DNA of 31,522 bases from a virus (taxonomy: Duplodnaviria; Caudoviricetes): positions 1-31,522 of the IMG/VR virus record IMGVR_UViG_3300028138_000009; one strand, written 5' to 3'. A program made the position numbers and the translations under genes. The notes under the pieces were generated by a model, which was given only the letters and a program-made list of their open reading frames with translations, was not told where the DNA came from and searched no databases. This document shows positions 4,672 to 30,543 of the stretch, piece by piece. Positions within the stretch are counted from its first letter, which is position 1, and each line of letters begins with the position of its first letter.

Positions 4672-4812
4672 CTACTCTGGATCTTCGTTTGGTTGTTCAG
4701 CGGTTGAGGGCGATCCGCCTGATGGCGCTGGATTCTGAGGCGGTGGCCCCGGTGGAGGCGGGGGTGGAGGCGGCGGCGGGAATCCGTCGTCTGGTTTCGG
4801 GTCGTCCGGCAT
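4672..4812 (-). CDS. 46-aa acidic polyproline micropeptide (not in the ORF track)
   Basis: MPDDPKPDDGFPPPPPPPPPPGPPPQNPAPSGGSPSTAEQPNEDPE; AGGAG 7 nt upstream; Pro run uses all four CCN codons. Confidence 0.75.
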   Translation of the reverse strand: MPDDPKPDDGFPPPPPPPPPPGPPPQNPAPSGGSPSTAEQPNEDPE

Positions 4813-18203: not shown

Positions 18204-18839
18204 TTAAGCGCTCAGTTGTTCCGCCAAAACTTTTCCATCCGGAAGAATGGTCGGCAATTCGTCCATCTTTCCGCGTTTGAATTCCCGCAGGTCGCGTACA
18301 GCACAGCCGCCACTCGCACAGTCTTTGCATTCGGGGAATGATTGAATGTGAGCTGTCCAGAGAGATTCCGCTGTAAGCGTTTTCAGGTTTTCCAGGTGCA
18401 TACCTGATTTCATGTTTTCCTGTGTAACCTTGAATGGCGAAAAAACCTTTGTGCAGCGAATGCATACAGCGCGGCAGCAATTGTCATTGCTCACTTGCCC
18501 ACGGAACGCATGATCTCTTTGCAGAACTCCTTCAGCGGTCTTCACATGGGAGCAATAGAACTGGCTGGTACGCCGCGCACGTTCATCTTGTACCGCTTCC
18601 TTGGCCCGCGCAACCCGGCGCTTATTCTCCTGCTCAATTTCCTTATCCAGCTTTTCTTGTTCACGCGCTGAAGGTTTTTTCATCTCGCGCACGGCCTCAA
18701 GCGTCTGCTCGTTGGCTTTCTGCATTACCGTGGCGATAAGGTTTTCCAGCATTTCCGGGGTGAATACGATCCCTTGCGGCTGTTCAGCCATTGTTTCCTG
18801 CTCCTTGATTTTTATCTTCTGATTTTCTAAAGGCTTCAT
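18204..18839 (-). CDS. Coiled-coil protein with Cys/His metal-binding clusters
   Basis: CSH...CCRAVCIRC...H...CKDCASGGC; start moved to MKPLEN (ATGA overlap). Confidence 0.7.
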   Translation of the reverse strand: MKPLENQKIKIKEQETMAEQPQGIVFTPEMLENLIATVMQKANEQTLEAVREMKKPSAREQEKLDKEIEQENKRRVARAKEAVQDERARRTSQFYCSHVKTAEGVLQRDHAFRGQVSNDNCCRAVCIRCTKVFSPFKVTQENMKSGMHLENLKTLTAESLWTAHIQSFPECKDCASGGCAVRDLREFKRGKMDELPTILPDGKVLAEQLSA

Positions 18840-19432
18840 GCTGCGCTCCGCTTCCCGGTAAGTACCGCCCAATGCGCGGATTGGCAGCTCGGTTGCCCGA
18901 ACATAACTTCCACTGATGGCAATGACACCATGCGCAGGCGTATCAAACGGGCAAGGATCGTGCGCCAGCCCTGCCGGAGAATCCCCACTCCTTCGCCATC
19001 TTGCCCCGGCTTACGCAGCAAAACAAATTCCGGCATGATTCCATCATGAAAGGCGAACAGATATTGCAGCCCTTCCGGATGGATCATGGATATGGGAACC
19101 TGCAAGTAAATCCCGATTTTTTCTTTGTCCGCATTGGCCCGCTCAAACCAGAGTGAAGGATTGAGCTTGGTTAGACGTTCAATGAATATGCTTGAGTGCA
19201 ACGGCATCCCGATACCGGCGTCCGCATTGGTTCTGTCCCTGCCATTGTCAGAAGCAAACGCCGCTTGTTTCTTTCCTTCAGCATCCGCGAAGATGGCCCG
19301 CTGGTGATCCCTCTTATAACCCCAGCGGTCATTGAGGTAACGCGCCATGGGTGAGAGCTTGGAGTTTGACTTGGAGGCTGCTACCGCCTTGTCAAACTCC
19401 ACGCTGCTAGGTACGTCAAGGATCAAGCTCAT
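18836..19432 (-). CDS. 198-aa hypothetical virion-module protein
   Basis: In operon, coupled at both ends. Confidence 0.7.
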   Translation of the reverse strand: MSLILDVPSSVEFDKAVAASKSNSKLSPMARYLNDRWGYKRDHQRAIFADAEGKKQAAFASDNGRDRTNADAGIGMPLHSSIFIERLTKLNPSLWFERANADKEKIGIYLQVPISMIHPEGLQYLFAFHDGIMPEFVLLRKPGQDGEGVGILRQGWRTILARLIRLRMVSLPSVEVMFGQPSCQSAHWAVLTGKRSAA

Positions 19433-20459: not shown

Positions 20460-21419
20460 TTAAACGAGGCTGCTGTCCGCGGTTACGATCCGATAACGGT
20501 AAGTTGTCGAATCAAGGGTCTTGAAGGCGGTGGCGAACCAATAGGAAACGTACTGCCCGATGTTTCCTTCCGGATCTGCTGGCGACGGGCCTCCCGGTAC
20601 GATGTTCAGGTTGAAGCGTTCATTGCGCGGATCAACAACCTTATCTGGGCCTTTGCCAGAGATGTTAATCATGCCGACTGCGCCCTTGCCGACAATGTAG
20701 GTCGAATACAGGACGCTAGGAGCCGTTCCAGTGCTGTTCACGTTTGTGGTTTCGAGGAAGCGTACGCCTGCAATCTTGCCGACTTCGCCATTGATGAGCT
20801 GGGTGTTGTTCGTGTACTTCAGCACGTCAATGAATCCGCCTGCAGTGTTGTCCGAAGTCAGGTCATAGGAGATGAACGGGTGAATGATCCCAATCATGTC
20901 CGACCCTTCACGGGAGCGAACGTCACGGCCAGTCAGGTTGTATTTGGATGCGCGGGCATCGGCGGCTGAGAAGGTTGCACCGATGGAAGCACCTGAAGGG
21001 CTGGAATTGCTATCAAACTCGATGCGGGCCAGCGTGTCCACCGTCTTTGATGCACGGTAAGACATATCTTCCACCATGCGCTGCGTGGTTGGGCTGATAT
21101 CGGTCAGCATCAACATCTGAGATGAACTGGTGAAGTCCGAATACTGCTCAACGGTTGCGGAAACCGTGGTGCTGGTCTGCGTAAACGGAGTACCTACAAC
21201 GCCTTCAGCCGAAGGAACGGTATTCGCTCCAGGCAGGGTGAAGCGGTACATCTGGATTGTTTTTCCTTGGCCTTGCGGGATGTTGTGATCCGTCTCGCAA
21301 ACATTGGCGAACCGGAACATCTGTTCAAGCCGATCCAGCGACAGAGAATCATAGTATGCCGCAGGAAAATGGGTTAATGACCCTGTTTGTGTGGTATTTG
21401 CTGCTGGTGAAATAGACAC
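20460..21419 (-). CDS. Major capsid protein, HK97 fold, N4-gp56-like family
   Basis: IPQGQGKTIQMYRF, SAEGVVG, TVEQYSDF, IIHP, GEVGKIAGVRFLETTN, DPEG..GQ motifs; GTG start with AGGAG. Confidence 0.9.
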   Translation of the reverse strand: MSISPAANTTQTGSLTHFPAAYYDSLSLDRLEQMFRFANVCETDHNIPQGQGKTIQMYRFTLPGANTVPSAEGVVGTPFTQTSTTVSATVEQYSDFTSSSQMLMLTDISPTTQRMVEDMSYRASKTVDTLARIEFDSNSSPSGASIGATFSAADARASKYNLTGRDVRSREGSDMIGIIHPFISYDLTSDNTAGGFIDVLKYTNNTQLINGEVGKIAGVRFLETTNVNSTGTAPSVLYSTYIVGKGAVGMINISGKGPDKVVDPRNERFNLNIVPGGPSPADPEGNIGQYVSYWFATAFKTLDSTTYRYRIVTADSSLV

Positions 21420-21562
21420 AAGCGTCTCCTGTAAATGGGAATCAGTGTTGCATTCGCCATCTCAGAAGGAACGCTTCTGGATTGCCTGCAAGTCGACGTG
21501 GGGAACGCCCAATCCAACTTGGACTTACTGGTTATGCGTTTGCTCGCGGGAACGCCGCTTAG
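21420..21562 (-). ncRNA. Candidate structured 5' leader RNA with three G[CGUUC]C-capped hairpins
   Basis: GCGG[CGUUC]CCGC (21558-21546), UGGG[CGUUC]CCCA (21511-21499), CAGAAG[CGUUC]CUUCUG (21479-21463). Confidence 0.65.
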
Positions 21563-21567
21563 ATGCT

Positions 21568-21596
21568 ATTAACGCTTAAAGGTGTTGCGTTGTCAA
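21568..21596 (-). promoter_or_regulatory. Putative capsid promoter with an internal inverted repeat
   Basis: TTGACA(21596-21591)-17 nt-GTTAAT (imperfect -10); AACGC-N11-GCGTT spans the spacer. Confidence 0.55.
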
Positions 21597-21603
21597 GAAC
21601 TTT

Positions 21604-22098
21604 TCATGGTGCCTGAAAAACTGTAATGCCTTGGATAGTGGGAATATGCCATATTGCCTTCCACGGCCTGATTGTCCAGATGGTCTGGTACTGCGGTCGG
21701 TTGGAGTCGTGGAGTACAACAACAGCCCCTGGCGCAAGCTGAAGCGCCGCAACTTCTTCTACTCGATCACCAGATGAATCGATGAAGGCAAAGTCTACGG
21801 AATTAAGATGCTTGGTTATAAAATCTATTCCGGAACAATGCAGGATATGACAGTGAAGCTGAATGCATTTACTCTCAGCCTCTTTTACCATATCAGAATC
21901 AGTATCGCACGACCATACATCTCCAATTCCGTTCATCCATGCCGCTTTTGACAATCTTTCCGTTGCTCCACCTTTATAGCATCCTGTCTCCATGATAACT
22001 TTGGGCTTTAGCAGACGCACCAATCCATATAGGAAATCGTAGACTTCATGCTCTGAGGCCATTTCATCATCGGCGGTCAGCAGTCCATATTTAATCAT
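21604..22098 (-). CDS. Class I SAM-dependent O-methyltransferase-like protein
   Basis: KPKVIMETGCYKGGAT, DFAFIDS, LAPGAVVVLHDS. Confidence 0.85.
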   Translation of the reverse strand: MIKYGLLTADDEMASEHEVYDFLYGLVRLLKPKVIMETGCYKGGATERLSKAAWMNGIGDVWSCDTDSDMVKEAESKCIQLHCHILHCSGIDFITKHLNSVDFAFIDSSGDRVEEVAALQLAPGAVVVLHDSNRPQYQTIWTIRPWKAIWHIPTIQGITVFQAP

Positions 22099-22448
22099 GC
22101 TATTTCCCTTGGATGCTTTGATGTTTGGAATTCAAATTCCCTGATCGCCATTTCAACAGATTGGCACCCAATATTTCCATTTATCTCAGGTTTGAATTCA
22201 TAGGCTAATTGACATACTCTTCCATCGTGAGTACGCAAATACACTAGTTTAATAAGCGCTGGGCAAACCAGATTTGATTGTTCCCTGAATGGCGGGCCAT
22301 CAGAGCCAATATATTGCCACGCACTGCCCCACTTCTCCCATTTTGGACGCATATCCCAAAAACTTATTACAGGGGTACCGCGCCGTCCAATGGTTTCTCC
22401 TAGTGCAAGTTGCTTTATAGCTCTTCTGACATTATCCGCAAGTGTCAT
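22095..22448 (-). CDS. 117-aa hypothetical protein
   Basis: ATGA-coupled on both sides. Confidence 0.65.
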   Translation of the reverse strand: MTLADNVRRAIKQLALGETIGRRGTPVISFWDMRPKWEKWGSAWQYIGSDGPPFREQSNLVCPALIKLVYLRTHDGRVCQLAYEFKPEINGNIGCQSVEMAIREFEFQTSKHPREIA

Positions 22449-22993
22449 GCGATTTGTGTCACTCCGCTTTTGTAATCATCCGGCCAAACCGTTGACAGTC
22501 CATCTCCAAAGTGATTGCGCCGAACGTCTCTCATGCGCCCGACTTTGTAGCCCTTGGCCCGTATCTGTTCTCCCTGCGCACAGGAATCCCACGTCTGTCC
22601 ATTGAACGGAGGTACTTCAATGATTCCTTTGCGGATCACGTTTATGCCTCCGCCTGTTTTGGTTTCATAAATCTCGGTCGGCCCGAACGGAGCGCAGTAA
22701 TCTTCCGTTCCCAGCAGAGCATATTCTGGATATCGGCGCATCAGATCTTCGCAACGTTCAAGGAAGTTTTTTCCAAGCGGCATACAGTCATCATCGGCGA
22801 TGATATAGAAATCTGTTTGGGCTTTATCTTCCGCCATTCTACGACGCTCCTGCTGAAACTCCCGACCTGACATGGCTATGGGTAAAATTATCTTAGGACG
22901 ACAAAACGATTCCCACATCATCAGGCAAGGGGCAGCAATAGCTTCACGCAATCGGTCACGAGGCTGCCAGCAACAGTAAAACACATCGATCAT
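22445..22993 (-). CDS. GT-A fold (GT2-like) glycosyltransferase
   Basis: DFYIIADDDC (DxD), GGGINVIRK, IRAKGYKV, C-terminal HFG..S. Confidence 0.8.
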   Translation of the reverse strand: MIDVFYCCWQPRDRLREAIAAPCLMMWESFCRPKIILPIAMSGREFQQERRRMAEDKAQTDFYIIADDDCMPLGKNFLERCEDLMRRYPEYALLGTEDYCAPFGPTEIYETKTGGGINVIRKGIIEVPPFNGQTWDSCAQGEQIRAKGYKVGRMRDVRRNHFGDGLSTVWPDDYKSGVTQIA

Positions 22994-23850
22994 ACGTCAT
23001 ATCCCAACTTCTTGGCCTCTTGCCATTTGCGCATGACTTCTTGCGGAGAATCACCCGGTACGGCTTTCAGGTTTTCTGGAATGCCTCCGGTTGTCGGCGG
23101 ACGAGAACCAACGGGAACGGGCGGTATAGGCATAGGCGGCTTGGGATTGTTCCCCGCCTGCTTTGTCGTGTAAGACTTATCGTTCTGCACAAGAAACGAG
23201 TGCGCCATTTGGAGCATGTTCACTTGCTGTTTGGGACTGGCGCGGTCGAAGGCTTCACCTAATCCCGCATTGACGATATTGCCCAGCAGCTTTTCATTGT
23301 TCTCTTTGGTGTTATTGAAGTCCGGCTGCGCGGTCAAGAACTGGAGTTCAATGTTCTGCGCGGCGAACGTGGAAGATGTTTCCTGAATCATTCCCAGAGC
23401 GCGGCGCATGGTCTGTGCATCTGGATAACCCAGAGACTTTGCCACAAGTCCGGCTGCATATTCCGCCGCCGCCTGCTCCTCTGCATTGGCGAAAACTGAT
23501 TGCGGCGCTTCTGGCGTTGCGGGAGTGGCGGGCTGCGCAGCCTTTGTGACCTGATCTTTGGCCCATAGCTTTGTGCTGACTTGTGCCTGTCCCTGCTTGG
23601 CAAGAATCTCCTGCGCTGTGCCTTCAAAAACTTCGCCAGTCAGAAGCTCTGTTTTGAATCTTCCGCCGCCTAGATCGGTAACGACAACGGGATTTTCTGG
23701 TGTTGGCGCTGTAATGACTGGCGCGGCTAGTTCGGCTGCTACTGGCGGCTGACCCGGTGTTGGCGTGCTCTGCGATGCGGCATTAGCCGCTGCAATCTGC
23801 TCTGTGGTCAATGGTATTGCTGGTGTTGCGGGAATTGCTGGTGTGCTCAT
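22990..23850 (-). CDS. Probable capsid scaffolding protein
   Basis: Pro/Ala-rich ends, helical core, C-terminal short helix; between portal and capsid genes. Confidence 0.65.
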   Translation of the reverse strand: MSTPAIPATPAIPLTTEQIAAANAASQSTPTPGQPPVAAELAAPVITAPTPENPVVVTDLGGGRFKTELLTGEVFEGTAQEILAKQGQAQVSTKLWAKDQVTKAAQPATPATPEAPQSVFANAEEQAAAEYAAGLVAKSLGYPDAQTMRRALGMIQETSSTFAAQNIELQFLTAQPDFNNTKENNEKLLGNIVNAGLGEAFDRASPKQQVNMLQMAHSFLVQNDKSYTTKQAGNNPKPPMPIPPVPVGSRPPTTGGIPENLKAVPGDSPQEVMRKWQEAKKLGYDV

Positions 23851-26297: not shown

Positions 26298-28094
26298 TTA
26301 CCAAGGCTGAAAAATTGTCGAATATTCCGGGTCTTCTTCTGGCAGTCCATTCAGCGCGGCCATGCTCAGATTTGCGGTTGGAATGCCTTTCCATTCTTTC
26401 ACTTGTCCGTCCGCGTCTGGTGGCGAGTCTAACTCACTTGCCTGTCTTCCTTCAACATCAAAAGTTATGCCGTCTCTGGATTGGAGGGCATCAGCGATAG
26501 TGTCGAGGATGTCGTCATGGTTATACTTTGGGAAATATAGAGCCTCCAGTTCGAGTTGGTTACGAGCTGCGGGGTCGATATCATCACAAAATACGAAGGC
26601 TGATTGCTTCCAGTACGGCTGAGTTCCTCTGATTCGGTGGACTTTGGACGCGATATTGTCACGGTTTAGCTCCATTACAGGCAGGAATATCCCACGCTTT
26701 GCCATCACTTTGCGGAGAAATGGTAGGAGGACGCGGGCATGGGCCTCTTTCTCGATCTTGAAAAACATGATACGCGGCTGATAAGCCCAGAGGGAGAACA
26801 TTTCCTCAATCACCTGATCCGGCGTCATGCGGCCCCAGCGCAGCTTATCGAAATAGCAGCGGCCATCTGTACCCCAGCCGTGCAGGTTCAGGCAGCAATA
26901 ATCAATGTCTCCTCCCTGCTTTGGCTCCATTCCGTTCAAGTCGATGGTGCAATTCCAGTTGATACGCGGAGAGAGGTTATCCAGCACTTTGCGCGGAATC
27001 CAGCGGATATCCGACTTCGATGTAATCAGGCCGTCTTTATCCTGCAATGGCTTCAAGAGGTATTGCGGATACAGGACTCCAGGGCCGAGGGCTGGATCAC
27101 GTTCAATCTTTTGCAGCGCTTCAATGCTGATACGCTTTGGCCACCAGACATGCTTTTTCACCAGCAATTGAAACTTCGATTCTGCCTGTAGCCACATCGC
27201 CTCCGATCCGCTGCGCTTTGCTTCCCGTGCTTTGTCTAGTGCGGCGGAGCAAGTCTCATAATCTGAACAGGCCGGGATATGCAGAACACACCATTCCTGA
27301 TCTTCTCGCGGCTTTTTCACTTCTGATTCATAGATGGTGTGATGTGGATCACTGAAATTATAGATTGTTCCGGTGAGGTTAAACCAGCCATGCCCCGGTG
27401 CAAGTTCTGAAGTTTCCACGAGCGGCCAGAGCGATGAAATAAACTTGCGCGTCTGTTCAATGCTGCCCGGTGTGCGCGTGTTCTGATCTTCTACGCCGTC
27501 ATCAATGTCCACCATTTCATAGTGACCACCAGCCACGGATGAGTCAGCGGACGCAACGCGGGCGGTCGGCTCTTTCAGTTCTTTACGGCGGCATGGAATG
27601 ATGAACTGTTCTGAGTCTCCAAAGTCTTCTAACTTTCCGGATGCGGAAACTTTTGGGCAGTATTCAGGGAACAGCCAGCGGAACAATTGATTCTTTATGA
27701 ATGGCTGCTTGATGCCTCGCAGGAAATCCTTTGCGCGTCCCATCTGCGCGGAGCCAATCAAAAGGCGGATGTCGGGATAATTGAGGATTGCCTGAATCTT
27801 GTGATCTTGCGTAATGATTGTGGTTTTGAGTCCGCCGCGAGTGACAAGCGTGAGAGTCTTGCGCGGCCCCTGCAATTCCCAGATGGAGCACTTCGGAGCA
27901 TATCCGGACCCGGTTTCAACGCTCACATAATTTAGCGGCTCTGTGCCGCCTTGAAACTTTTGCAGGTGATTGATGATCCGCATGTGAGGCGCGGAAACAT
28001 CTTTGTGGCCCAAGACCCTGCATAATCTCCAAAGGTCGGTTCTGCACTCTTGGCGCATACGCTTCCAATCGGAGATATTGAATTGTTCAGCCAA
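26298..28094 (-). CDS. terL: Terminase large subunit
   Basis: TRGGLKTT (Walker A variant), GGHYEMVDIDD (Walker B), GT coupling motif, nuclease IDLNG...DY and FPKYNHDDILD. Confidence 0.92.
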   Translation of the reverse strand: MAEQFNISDWKRMRQECRTDLWRLCRVLGHKDVSAPHMRIINHLQKFQGGTEPLNYVSVETGSGYAPKCSIWELQGPRKTLTLVTRGGLKTTIITQDHKIQAILNYPDIRLLIGSAQMGRAKDFLRGIKQPFIKNQLFRWLFPEYCPKVSASGKLEDFGDSEQFIIPCRRKELKEPTARVASADSSVAGGHYEMVDIDDGVEDQNTRTPGSIEQTRKFISSLWPLVETSELAPGHGWFNLTGTIYNFSDPHHTIYESEVKKPREDQEWCVLHIPACSDYETCSAALDKAREAKRSGSEAMWLQAESKFQLLVKKHVWWPKRISIEALQKIERDPALGPGVLYPQYLLKPLQDKDGLITSKSDIRWIPRKVLDNLSPRINWNCTIDLNGMEPKQGGDIDYCCLNLHGWGTDGRCYFDKLRWGRMTPDQVIEEMFSLWAYQPRIMFFKIEKEAHARVLLPFLRKVMAKRGIFLPVMELNRDNIASKVHRIRGTQPYWKQSAFVFCDDIDPAARNQLELEALYFPKYNHDDILDTIADALQSRDGITFDVEGRQASELDSPPDADGQVKEWKGIPTANLSMAALNGLPEEDPEYSTIFQPW

Positions 28095-28698
28095 GGGTCA
28101 ATTCTGACACTGTTACAAATTTCTTGTGCGAATATTTTTGCAGGATAATTTCAACGGCTTCGACCGTGTGCGATCTGTCCGCGCCCAACTTGTCTGGTGC
28201 TCCATCGTGCATGAGTACTATTTCTCCTTTTTCGGTATCCAGGTTGATGCTGTTTACAATTTCTTCAACTGGAGGAGAAACCCAATCGCCGCAGGACTGT
28301 GACCACAGGACAGTGTTCATATTCCATAGAACCGAACCAATTTCATCTACCACACATGGAAATCTTCCGAACGGGGGGCGCACTAGCACTGGAAGCATTC
28401 CTCCAGTCGCATTAGTGATAGCAAATTGGCATTCATTTATCTCTTTCGCCAATTGCTCACGGCTGACGGAATCTGCCGCCGCATGATTCATGGTGTGATT
28501 GCCGATCTCATGGCCATCATCATAGACTTGCCGCGCAATGTCGGGCTGTTCTTTGACCCATTTGCCGAGCATGAAAAATGTTGCCTTGGCTTTGTGCTTT
28601 GCGAGTATATGCAAGAGCATGGATGTATCGCACATGTTTGGCCCATCATCAAACGTGAGCGCTACCTGTGATGGATCGGAGCCATGAGTGATTATCAT
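28087..28698 (-). CDS. NodB/CE4 polysaccharide deacetylase
   Basis: All five CE4 motifs: TFDDGP, HTMNH, RPPFG, DW, LMHD; no signal peptide. Confidence 0.95.
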   Translation of the reverse strand: MIITHGSDPSQVALTFDDGPNMCDTSMLLHILAKHKAKATFFMLGKWVKEQPDIARQVYDDGHEIGNHTMNHAAADSVSREQLAKEINECQFAITNATGGMLPVLVRPPFGRFPCVVDEIGSVLWNMNTVLWSQSCGDWVSPPVEEIVNSINLDTEKGEIVLMHDGAPDKLGADRSHTVEAVEIILQKYSHKKFVTVSELTLG

Positions 28699-28919: not shown

Positions 28920-29164
28920 TGGCTTATCATCCGCGTTATTTTTTCATCCTGTGCCGCCTGCGCGGACATGGCCCGACTCTGCCCGAAGTGATATTGCGCT
29001 TCACAATAGCGTGTGGCCTGCGCGAGAACATTCAACACCAAATCCAGGTTGTGCATGTCTCCGCCGAGCGCAAGTTTTCCGGTTGTAAGGTCATACTCCA
29101 GAGTGAGCCGCGTGACTTTTCCGGTGCCGACTGGAGTTCCGTTTAGAGTGGTAATCTCAGGCAT
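28916..29164 (-). CDS. 82-aa hypothetical protein
   Basis: AAGGA upstream; overlaps neighbours at both ends. Confidence 0.65.
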   Translation of the reverse strand: MPEITTLNGTPVGTGKVTRLTLEYDLTTGKLALGGDMHNLDLVLNVLAQATRYCEAQYHFGQSRAMSAQAAQDEKITRMISH

Positions 29165-29669
29165 TTTTTCCTTTCAGCATGAATATTCTGTGCTCATGCT
29201 CTCCATAGCTCAGGTGAAAATCTTCGAGCACTTTGAACTGCAACTCTATCCATGTAATCAGTTCGGCGGTAGACGGCATAACCGAAATTGAAATTGCGGA
29301 AAATCGCGCAAATCCCAAATATCTCTGGAGCAGAAAAACTGGTTCCGGCATGTAATAGAGGGATTCGCAGAATACGATGCAGTCATACTGCCTCATCGGT
29401 GTAAGGGTGCCGACATCTTCCTTGATTCCATATGGAGGATCAATTCCTATGTCGATGCCGAAATATTCAGCGCGCAAATTGTAAATAAAATCTCTCAATA
29501 TGCATTGCCCGCAACCCAGATCGAGAATAGATTGGCATTTATATTTACGAATTAGCGCGGCAATGATGGCATAATGCGCGGTAAATTCTTTCAGCCGATC
29601 CCAGGAGCCGGAGCGGTATTGCTCATCCCACTGCTCTGGAGTGACGCGGATAATTGGCTCACTCGCCAT
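29157..29669 (-). CDS. Class I SAM-dependent methyltransferase (small-molecule/sugar type)
   Basis: WDEQY, ILDLGCGQ, YFGIDI, YDCIVFCESLYY; start moved to MASEP (GAGG upstream). Confidence 0.85.
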   Translation of the reverse strand: MASEPIIRVTPEQWDEQYRSGSWDRLKEFTAHYAIIAALIRKYKCQSILDLGCGQCILRDFIYNLRAEYFGIDIGIDPPYGIKEDVGTLTPMRQYDCIVFCESLYYMPEPVFLLQRYLGFARFSAISISVMPSTAELITWIELQFKVLEDFHLSYGEHEHRIFMLKGKNA

Positions 29670-29946
29670 CTGCGGGCCTCTCTTCTCCGAAAACTTGTTT
29701 GAGGGAATCGGCGGACGGAGCAGGCATTGAGAATGTTCCGCCAGCAACTTTCTTTTCTGGGATGTAGCGGCCATTGGTGCATATCCAATCAATATAGGAC
29801 AATCGCACAGAGTAGTCGGGTATAGCTCCATCCTTTGAAGCTTTCTCCGCCTTCAACCCTTCGAGTAGAAGCTTCCCCAAATCTTCCACTTTTATTTCGG
29901 CCTGTATCCAGCTTTCAATTTCTTTGTGGACTTTTTTCGCGCTCAA
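29659..29946 (-). CDS. Possible terminase small subunit
   Basis: Helical 95 aa with EGLKAEK...PDYSVRL; near the operon start upstream of TerL; no other TerS candidate seen. Confidence 0.4.
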   Translation of the reverse strand: MSAKKVHKEIESWIQAEIKVEDLGKLLLEGLKAEKASKDGAIPDYSVRLSYIDWICTNGRYIPEKKVAGGTFSMPAPSADSLKQVFGEERPADGE

Positions 29947-30322: not shown

Positions 30323-30543
30323 GTAAAATCTCCAAAAACGCTGCGCTCTCAATCTAACCCTTGGCGGCAGGATTTCAGCCCCGGCAGGGGTGATCCCGGC
30401 GCGGGCCAATAAAAGGTACCGGGAAAAGTAGTACCTATAAGTTAATTCAATGAGATAGGAGCGCATCGCAAACAGTTCGCGGAGGTGGATGAGGGTGAGG
30501 TTGGCCTGGATTCCGTTAAGGGTGTGGGGTGCTGGGCTGGAAA

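Follow-up and report, generated by a model that had tools for sequence, protein, structure and literature searches.

Covarying pentaloop hairpins in the leaders of N4-gp56-type phage capsid genes, and a putative scaffolding protein as their candidate reader

The locus studied here raises the question of what reads a set of hairpins that precede a phage capsid gene and display the same five-nucleotide loop, and what such a reading would be for. The hairpins lie in a DNA stretch of 31,522 nucleotides (hereafter the window), which is a partial, linear virus record of the Caudoviricetes (IMG/VR record IMGVR_UViG_3300028138_000009). Among the genes of the window are those for terminase and portal, for a putative scaffold and an N4-gp56 capsid, and for an adaptor and a nozzle of podovirus-like type. 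No relative of this phage was found in species genomes, and the best cultured match to its capsid protein showed 26.7% identity.

Some further features of the window and its relatives were recorded. Methyltransferase-like genes, a polysaccharide deacetylase and a possible glycosyltransferase (our own reading, with no profile match) are inserted in and before the head module (minus strand, 21604-22993, 28087-28698, and 29157-29831). Just past the capsid module, two proteins of unknown function (minus strand, 18204-18872 and 18836-19432) are kept in 17 of 17 genomes; searches for both returned no family match and no ESM Atlas match, and conserved Cys/His pairs in the first one suggest zinc binding. 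In three near relatives (window 30412-30427 on the minus strand, L283 4127-4231, and L294 17563-17667), the late region is preceded by a non-coding element made of a conserved core followed by GC-rich hairpins, possibly a packaging or promoter site. In addition, GATCC is nearly absent in genomes G016 and G027 (10 in 45 kb and 5 in 20 kb, respectively), which suggests GATC restriction-site avoidance in some relatives.

The hairpin array of the capsid leader and its family

A first-pass annotation, made from the sequence alone, had described three stems carrying a G[CGUUC]C loop on the minus strand, and all three were found where it had placed them (Table 1). When the 184-nt intergenic region was shuffled 20,000 times with its dinucleotides preserved, three identical stemmed 7-mers never arose; GCGTTCC by itself is common enough window-wide (8 found vs 4.4 expected). 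The location that had been proposed for the array, between a TTGACA promoter and the capsid ribosome-binding site (RBS), was borne out by position, with the hairpins placed between the TTGACA box and the GGAG (21429-21426) and GTG (21419) of the capsid gene, though the −10 element is weak; a promoter scanner gave no call at this TTGACA. A TTG(A/C)(C/A)H box was present about 40-54 nt upstream of the first loop in most of the relatives listed. In the capsid promoters of five loci (L152, L156, L219, L227, and L242), TTGACA and a TANNNT box are separated by as little as 7-8 nt, so that the usual spacing is shortened by one helical turn.

Table 1. Coordinates of the leader elements and associated genes in the window.
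Feature	Position	Strand	Remarks
Likely sigma70-type capsid promoter	21566..21596	-	TTGACA 21596-21591, weak -10 near 21572-21567
Hairpin 1, GCGG[CGUUC]CCGC	21558-21546	-	4/4 pairs kept in 10/10 near-clade leaders, double changes in 3/4
P2 helix (CAAG/CUUG), tip = hairpin 2	21489..21521	-	Basal helix 100% paired, double changes in 3/5 pairs
Hairpin 2, UGGG[CGUUC]CCCA within CAAGTTG/CGACTTG (21521-21489)	21511-21499	-	Apical stem 79.5% paired
P3: basal GC/GC pairs + hairpin 3, CAGAAG[CGUUC]CUUCUG (21479-21463)	21453..21488	-	Double changes in 3/4 apical pairs
Predicted alternative helix, would hide SD GGAG and exclude hairpin 3	21426..21469 (21469-21457 with 21438-21426)	-	Folding only
Major capsid protein, N4-gp56 family, 319 aa, regulated gene	20460..21419	-	TIGR04387 (E 2.9e-28), phrog_1357
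Putative scaffolding protein, 286 aa, proposed reader	22990..23850	-	Between portal and capsid, found in 17/17 genomes
Scaffold N-terminal beta3-alpha domain, residues 55-105	23536..23688	-	Mean pLDDT 92.9; E73, F75, Q90, T93, K94, W96, A97 track loop

Capsid homologues yielded 160 loci, from which 82 leaders with a clear start and enough upstream DNA were retained after removal of duplicates; 76 of them were non-redundant, and 73 of these were long enough for testing. With no motif assumed, the 73 leaders contained 230 five-nucleotide loops on stems of at least 4 bp vs 117 ± 10 in shuffles, and 3- and 4-nt loops showed no enrichment over shuffles in the same leaders. The pattern G[NRWHC]C with a stem, written after inspecting the leaders, gave 27, 29, and 30 copies in 10, 21, and 42 leaders of falling capsid identity, respectively, with control values of 0.2, 0.5, and 0.9 in shuffles and 0, 0, and 1 on the opposite strand. 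At least one stemmed pentaloop was found in 48 of the 73 non-redundant N4-gp56-type capsid leaders, and at least two in 27. Motif copies carried a stem of at least 4 bp in 86 of 154 cases in leaders vs 6.5% in 888 kb of flanks. The family consensus consists of covarying stems of 4-6 bp with an HRWHC pentaloop; looser stems, A-U closing pairs, and loops of 6-7 nt explain further leader hairpins, and in L145, L146, L156, L242, L250, and L262 the loop is longer by one or two bases on the 3′ side of the conserved C. A late-gene regulon was rejected, since in the scanned genomes no gene other than that of the capsid is preceded by the array, bar scattered single matches; short spurious ORFs masked some leaders, the window's included, in this gene-start scan.

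The stems of the window differ in sequence and yet pair, which had been taken as internal covariation, and a comparison of homologous capsid leaders had been suggested. In these leaders the stems covary, keeping their pairing while their sequences change: among the 10 nearest ones, double-sided changes were found at 12 of 19 pairs, and the covariation score was 0.535 vs 0.235 in shuffled and at most 0.172 in slid alignments. The CAAGUUG/CGACUUG extension put forward for hairpin 2 also held, with CAAG/CUUG fully paired in the same 10 leaders. Two other early proposals did not survive this comparison. The loop, described as invariant, is so only inside this phage, bases 1-4 differing between phages, and the AACGC linker, credited with pseudoknot, alternative or intermolecular pairing to GCGUU, is lost in nine near relatives, so that the pseudoknot was rejected.

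The array could not be assigned to a named family, in line with the first-pass annotation. Rfam 15 (including GP20-a/b, TwoAYGGAY, guanidine-II, T-box, and pRNA) gave no matches in the window, eight genome pieces, and 16 loci, with best E-values on the leader of 0.43-4.1, far below the gathering threshold. A scan of IMG/VR for the triple GCGTTCC pattern returned 120 loci, mostly tandem repeats and none with this capsid.

Wobble pairs are uninformative on the strand (19 A-C vs 11 G-U in the stems, so that the sense strand is not marked by them), and the RNA reading therefore rests on position and orientation. The array faces the capsid gene downstream of the promoter, and where the capsid gene is interrupted it remains 630-830 nt upstream, with the true 5′ start. 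No helical phase was detected in the spacing between hairpin copies. Altogether, sequence comparison indicates that the RNA leader is real and widespread, without a catalogue match and with a specific candidate reader.

Two peculiarities of the capsid genes themselves were also observed. Those of L137/L138, L155, L172, L175, L183, and L194 contain insertions of 600-800 nt near the N-terminus, which gave no Rfam match at gathering score and some of which end in what we take to be a group I intron-like motif. The capsid frames of L130, L133, L135, L220, L223, and L264 seem to be N-terminally extended by about 30-40 mostly hydrophobic codons, and matching proteins of 344-356 aa exist in the sequence collection.

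The loop code and its candidate reader

Agreement between loops was quantified in 61 labelled leaders with at least two exact loops (164 loops, 151 within-leader pairs). Hairpins of the same leader agreed at base 4 in 143 of the 151 pairs, at base 3 in 141, and at base 1 in 77, base 5 being fixed by the pattern. Base 4 toggles between U and C in sister phages (L204/L207, L210/L126, L177/L249, and L216/L219), and inside three toggling clades the agreement at this base was complete (36/36, 50/50, and 25/25; p ≤ 2e-4). Copying between hairpins would homogenise base 1 too, and thus the uniformity of bases 3 and 4 within each leader, together with their switching between sisters, points to selection by one sequence-specific reader.

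Several candidates for this role received no support. No capsid residue follows the loop sequence. Restriction-site avoidance was set aside, the two loop types showing no difference in the frequency of GTTCC (p 0.74) or GTCCC (p 0.69) and a borderline one for GTCC (p 0.05). Regarding phage tRNAs, the four tRNA calls in 57 loci included none matching the loops and none in the window. For a complementary guide RNA, no excess of complementary sites was found before genes; the best homologous site, present in 7 of 17 genomes and equalled in 12 of 200 permutations, corresponded to a Gly-Thr codon pair in portal and was absent in further genomes. No covarying nucleotide was detected in sister pairs or in the capsid gene, no complement changing with the loops was seen in the core module, and hairpin loops of 27 genomes or genome pieces showed no excess of complements (p 0.11). 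The plus strand of the window (4763-4795) does contain a 9-bp hairpin whose loop, CGGGAAT, is complementary to hairpin 1; since proline-rich coding DNA runs opposite to it and no relative has an equivalent, it is probably due to chance.

We infer that the protein encoded between portal and capsid is a scaffolding protein from its position, its Pro-rich composition, and a confident C-terminal helix (residues 269-281) in the model; in profile searches one of 17 homologues matched, weakly (phrog_648, E 0.025). AlphaFold confidently predicted three strands and a helix for residues 55-105, a small conserved domain for which Pfam, PDB sequences, and Foldseek gave no meaningful match. When its structure was compared, a release-factor domain and HPF/pY-type chains led (Z 3.5-5.0, rmsd about 3 Å over 50-58 residues); these dsRBD-like neighbours (best Z 5.0) are weak, within the range of common arrangements, and none is significant. 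From the predicted topology we infer that residues 73, 90, 93, 94, and 97 would share one surface.

In a first screen of twelve core proteins, the highest score was shared by scaffold residues 73 and 75 and one terminase column, the latter scored on fewer rows. Columns were then ranked for their tracking of each base over 61 pairs and 2,465 protein columns, leaving out relatives whose capsids were more than 65% identical. For base 3, ranks 1, 2, and 4 went to scaffold residues 96, 93, and 94, residue 73 came first for base 4, and the top four columns for both bases jointly were scaffold 96, 94, 90, and 75. Ala or Gly at position 93 accompanied A3, and Thr, Ser or Asn at this position accompanied U3 or C3, in 59 of 61 phages; such a correspondence in size is chemically sensible. 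On well-supported tree branches, only 2 independent pairs bear on this rule. Its two exceptions are L145 and L146, with extra bases in their loops. A post hoc rule based on residues 73 and 90 parted UU from UC loops in 33 of 33 cases (7 of 7 independent pairs, p 0.016), the top ten columns for this distinction being free of any single scaffold column. Both rules were derived from largely the data they describe.

Four residue-to-loop rules were also written before further loci were fetched, and the new pairs were scored by eye. Twelve of 13 new pairs agreed, L146 being the failure; five of the 12 successes are close kin of training phages and two have mixed loops scored by majority, and six new loci with unclear loops and eight with no capsid leader were left unscored. 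Under stricter lineage blocking, only residue 93 beat every other protein (0.89 vs 0.85), with residue 73 dropping to 0.70 vs 0.74 and the joint code to 0.41 vs 0.50.

If the scaffold reads the loops, its own message might carry one, and hence hairpins were searched for at the start of the scaffold gene. Hairpins of the phage's own type within 150 nt of this start numbered 14 in 61 loci vs 1.9 expected (p 7e-4 when counted as 8 lineages), and those of other types 8 vs 6.6 expected. Same-type hairpins were present at the scaffold start in 7 of 56 cases, vs 0-1 of 21-51 at six other genes. In one clade of seven phages, six have hairpins with differing stems that cover or abut the scaffold RBS. 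The remaining one, L219, carries a 3-bp hairpin across the scaffold start codon, and the loop of this hairpin has switched to UC together with those of the capsid leader. The contig L348, with no capsid leader, carries a UU hairpin at the scaffold start, as its Q90 predicts. No scaffold-start hairpin was found in the window and its six nearest relatives, and 47 of the 61 loci are without one. Taken together, these comparisons make the scaffold the probable reader of the pentaloops.

Ribosome-binding-site coupling and the proposed control of capsid synthesis

Folding of the free RNA of the window predicted that hairpin 3 is not formed (closing-pair probability 0.0) and that one of its arms is paired instead with the SD region (probability 0.75). 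When all three hairpins were imposed, the predicted cost of RBS opening fell by 5.2 kcal/mol, from 12.0 to 6.8, and an equivalent RBS-hiding helix was predicted in L209 and L210. Over 50 leaders, forced hairpins made the RBS easier to open by more than 1 kcal/mol in 24 and harder by more than 1 kcal/mol in one, and 26 gained at most 1 kcal/mol. Hairpin formation freed the RBS by a mean of 1.97 kcal/mol when the downstream parts were native and by 0.64 kcal/mol when they were swapped (native higher in 34 of 50 leaders, p 1.8e-4). Duplex strength exceeded that of swaps in 29 of 50 leaders, which is not significant (p 0.077), and in 16 of 20 cluster representatives (p 0.002); the anti-SD signal is absent in one large clade, and 15% of swaps do as well as the native window leader. 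Long helices between a hairpin arm and the SD were predicted in scattered lineages (L136, L147, L225, L227, and L239). These predictions support activation by refolding for part of the family, including the window phage, docking or stabilisation being also possible.

The following model is proposed, which we consider somewhat better than evenly balanced as a whole: the scaffold domain would bind the pentaloops, hold hairpin 3, free the RBS, and so turn capsid translation on. Late in infection, the capsid message, transcribed from a promoter of its own, would have a partly hidden RBS. Scaffold not yet assembled would bind two or three loops, keep the hairpins folded, and open the capsid RBS; in phages with a hairpin at the scaffold start, such binding would also turn off the synthesis of scaffold, in a P22-like repression. 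Coat drawing scaffold into procapsids would relax both effects. The purpose may be that coat is made only with free, unassembled scaffold, keeping both proteins in ratio. Sequence comparison establishes that the hairpins covary, that each leader has one uniform loop code, that this code matches scaffold residues 73, 90, and 93, and that hairpins of the same type occur at the scaffold start of some phages; physical binding, the direction of control, and its purpose are the proposed parts of the model. In a fuller formulation, whose chances we judge to be even, the scaffold would be a sequence-specific RNA-binding activator of the capsid gene and repressor of its own, with residues 73, 90, and 93 forming a code for pentaloop bases that diversifies into orthogonal pairs between sister phages.

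The earlier view of the array as a multivalent protein-binding RNA on the capsid mRNA is thus retained, the covarying stems and the lack of an Rfam family agreeing with it, without the pseudoknot, the fixed loop, and the pRNA-like packaging role, to which nothing in the analysis points.

The scaffold could instead bind the loops with no gating of initiation, the array being a docking site or sponge that tethers scaffold beside nascent coat, protects the 5′ end, or titrates scaffold off its own operator. All the evidence linking scaffold and loops fits this reading, as do the presence of two to three copies, the end of the last hairpin 23-116 nt upstream of the SD, and the little RBS coupling predicted in about half of the leaders; the stronger coupling of native leader/RBS pairs relative to swapped ones and the long arm/SD helices of scattered lineages argue against it, and we consider it rather unlikely.

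It is more doubtful still that the reader is another factor, either a host protein or RNA (for instance, tRNA anticodons on the NNC triplet) or an unsampled phage protein or guide RNA, and that the correlation with the scaffold stems from the common descent of linked genes. The weakening of the scaffold signal under strict lineage blocking would fit such a reader, as would the scope of the screen, in which only nine core proteins were covered and many genomes were partial. However, the C-terminal half of the scaffold, encoded nearer to the leader, carries less loop signal, the enrichment of same-type hairpins seen at the scaffold start does not extend to six other genes, and neither a complementary guide site nor a matching phage tRNA was found in the genomes searched.

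Repression of capsid translation by loop-bound scaffold would agree with the mostly repressive nature of known phage translational operators and with the same-type hairpins on the scaffold RBS of one clade, but no hairpin overlaps the SD in capsid leaders and forced hairpins hinder the RBS in just one of the 50 leaders and ease it in 24, which makes this reading very improbable. That the repeats act as DNA, as operator sites or extruded hairpins, is the least credible reading. It would agree with the lack of a sense-strand bias among wobble pairs. Against it, the sequences of the arms change under conserved pairing and spacer, the opposite of what operators would require, the copies show no helical phase, and the array always faces the capsid gene downstream of the promoter and stays with the true 5′ start of interrupted genes.

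Comparison with known systems

In a search of the literature outside subscription papers, neither this leader nor an activation of capsid translation by scaffold was found described, and capsid leaders are not mentioned in the accessible portions of PMC5737381 and 10.64898/2026.09.22.753630. Structured RNAs have been predicted upstream of phage structural genes, such as GP20-a and GP20-b (RF02991 and RF03003) and the candidate viral RNAs of Fremin et al. 2023 (PMC10690425). According to the supplement tables of that paper, DNAVirus_3698 (37 times) and DNAVirus_865 (4 times) precede capsid_maj_N4 genes, the former being mostly aquatic and the latter flagged as coding-like (PMC10690425). Our leader may overlap with these two candidates, and so may already have been detected computationally. 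As far as the available text of PMC10690425 goes, no reader is proposed for its candidates, whereas the scaffold is proposed here.

The sense-strand loops described in this work follow HRWHC, unlike those of CsrA/RsmA leaders, which display GGA. The boxB element of lambda is a pentaloop hairpin and the pRNA of phi29 presents several loops; the loops here are pyrimidine-rich and end in C, unlike the GNRA-like purine pentaloop of boxB, and have no conserved loop-loop complement, unlike pRNA. A parallel is offered by the coat-protein operators of MS2 and PP7 and by T4 gp32 and RegA, in which a virion or replication protein reads a short RNA with a specific loop. These are mostly single repressive sites on the RBS, in contrast with a tandem array upstream of it, and in MS2 and PP7 the reader is the coat, whereas the array is probably read by scaffold. 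In phage Mu, binding of Com upstream removes a structure that hides the RBS and activates mom translation. The unmasking of the RBS by an upstream-bound protein proposed here is similar, although protein, target, and loop differ and there is no homology.

To our knowledge, control of the coat/scaffold ratio in tailed phages has been explained mainly by autorepression of the P22 scaffold. The locus analysed here suggests a two-sided control, in which free scaffold would also license coat synthesis. With RNA, protein domain, and residues named, the proposal is testable with a protein of 50 residues and hairpins of 13 nt, and natural variants with different loop preferences would constitute a small set of orthogonal RNA-binding pairs.

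Among the precedents named in the first-pass annotation, the P22 scaffold turned out to be the closest, the scaffold being now the best-supported reader. The N-terminus of the P22 scaffolding protein has been implicated in translational autoregulation, according to the portion of 10.1101/2022.12.13.520362 available. As with P22 gp8, an N-terminal region of the scaffold is proposed to act on mRNA and to balance scaffold and coat; the scaffold residues that covary with the loops cluster at 73-97, and one clade has a cognate hairpin at the scaffold RBS. Unlike in P22, the main target here would be the capsid leader, with two to three sites and a predicted activating switch, and the residue-base code changes between phages. 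In its proposed function, the system would resemble a P22-type scaffold autoregulation extended to the coat gene.
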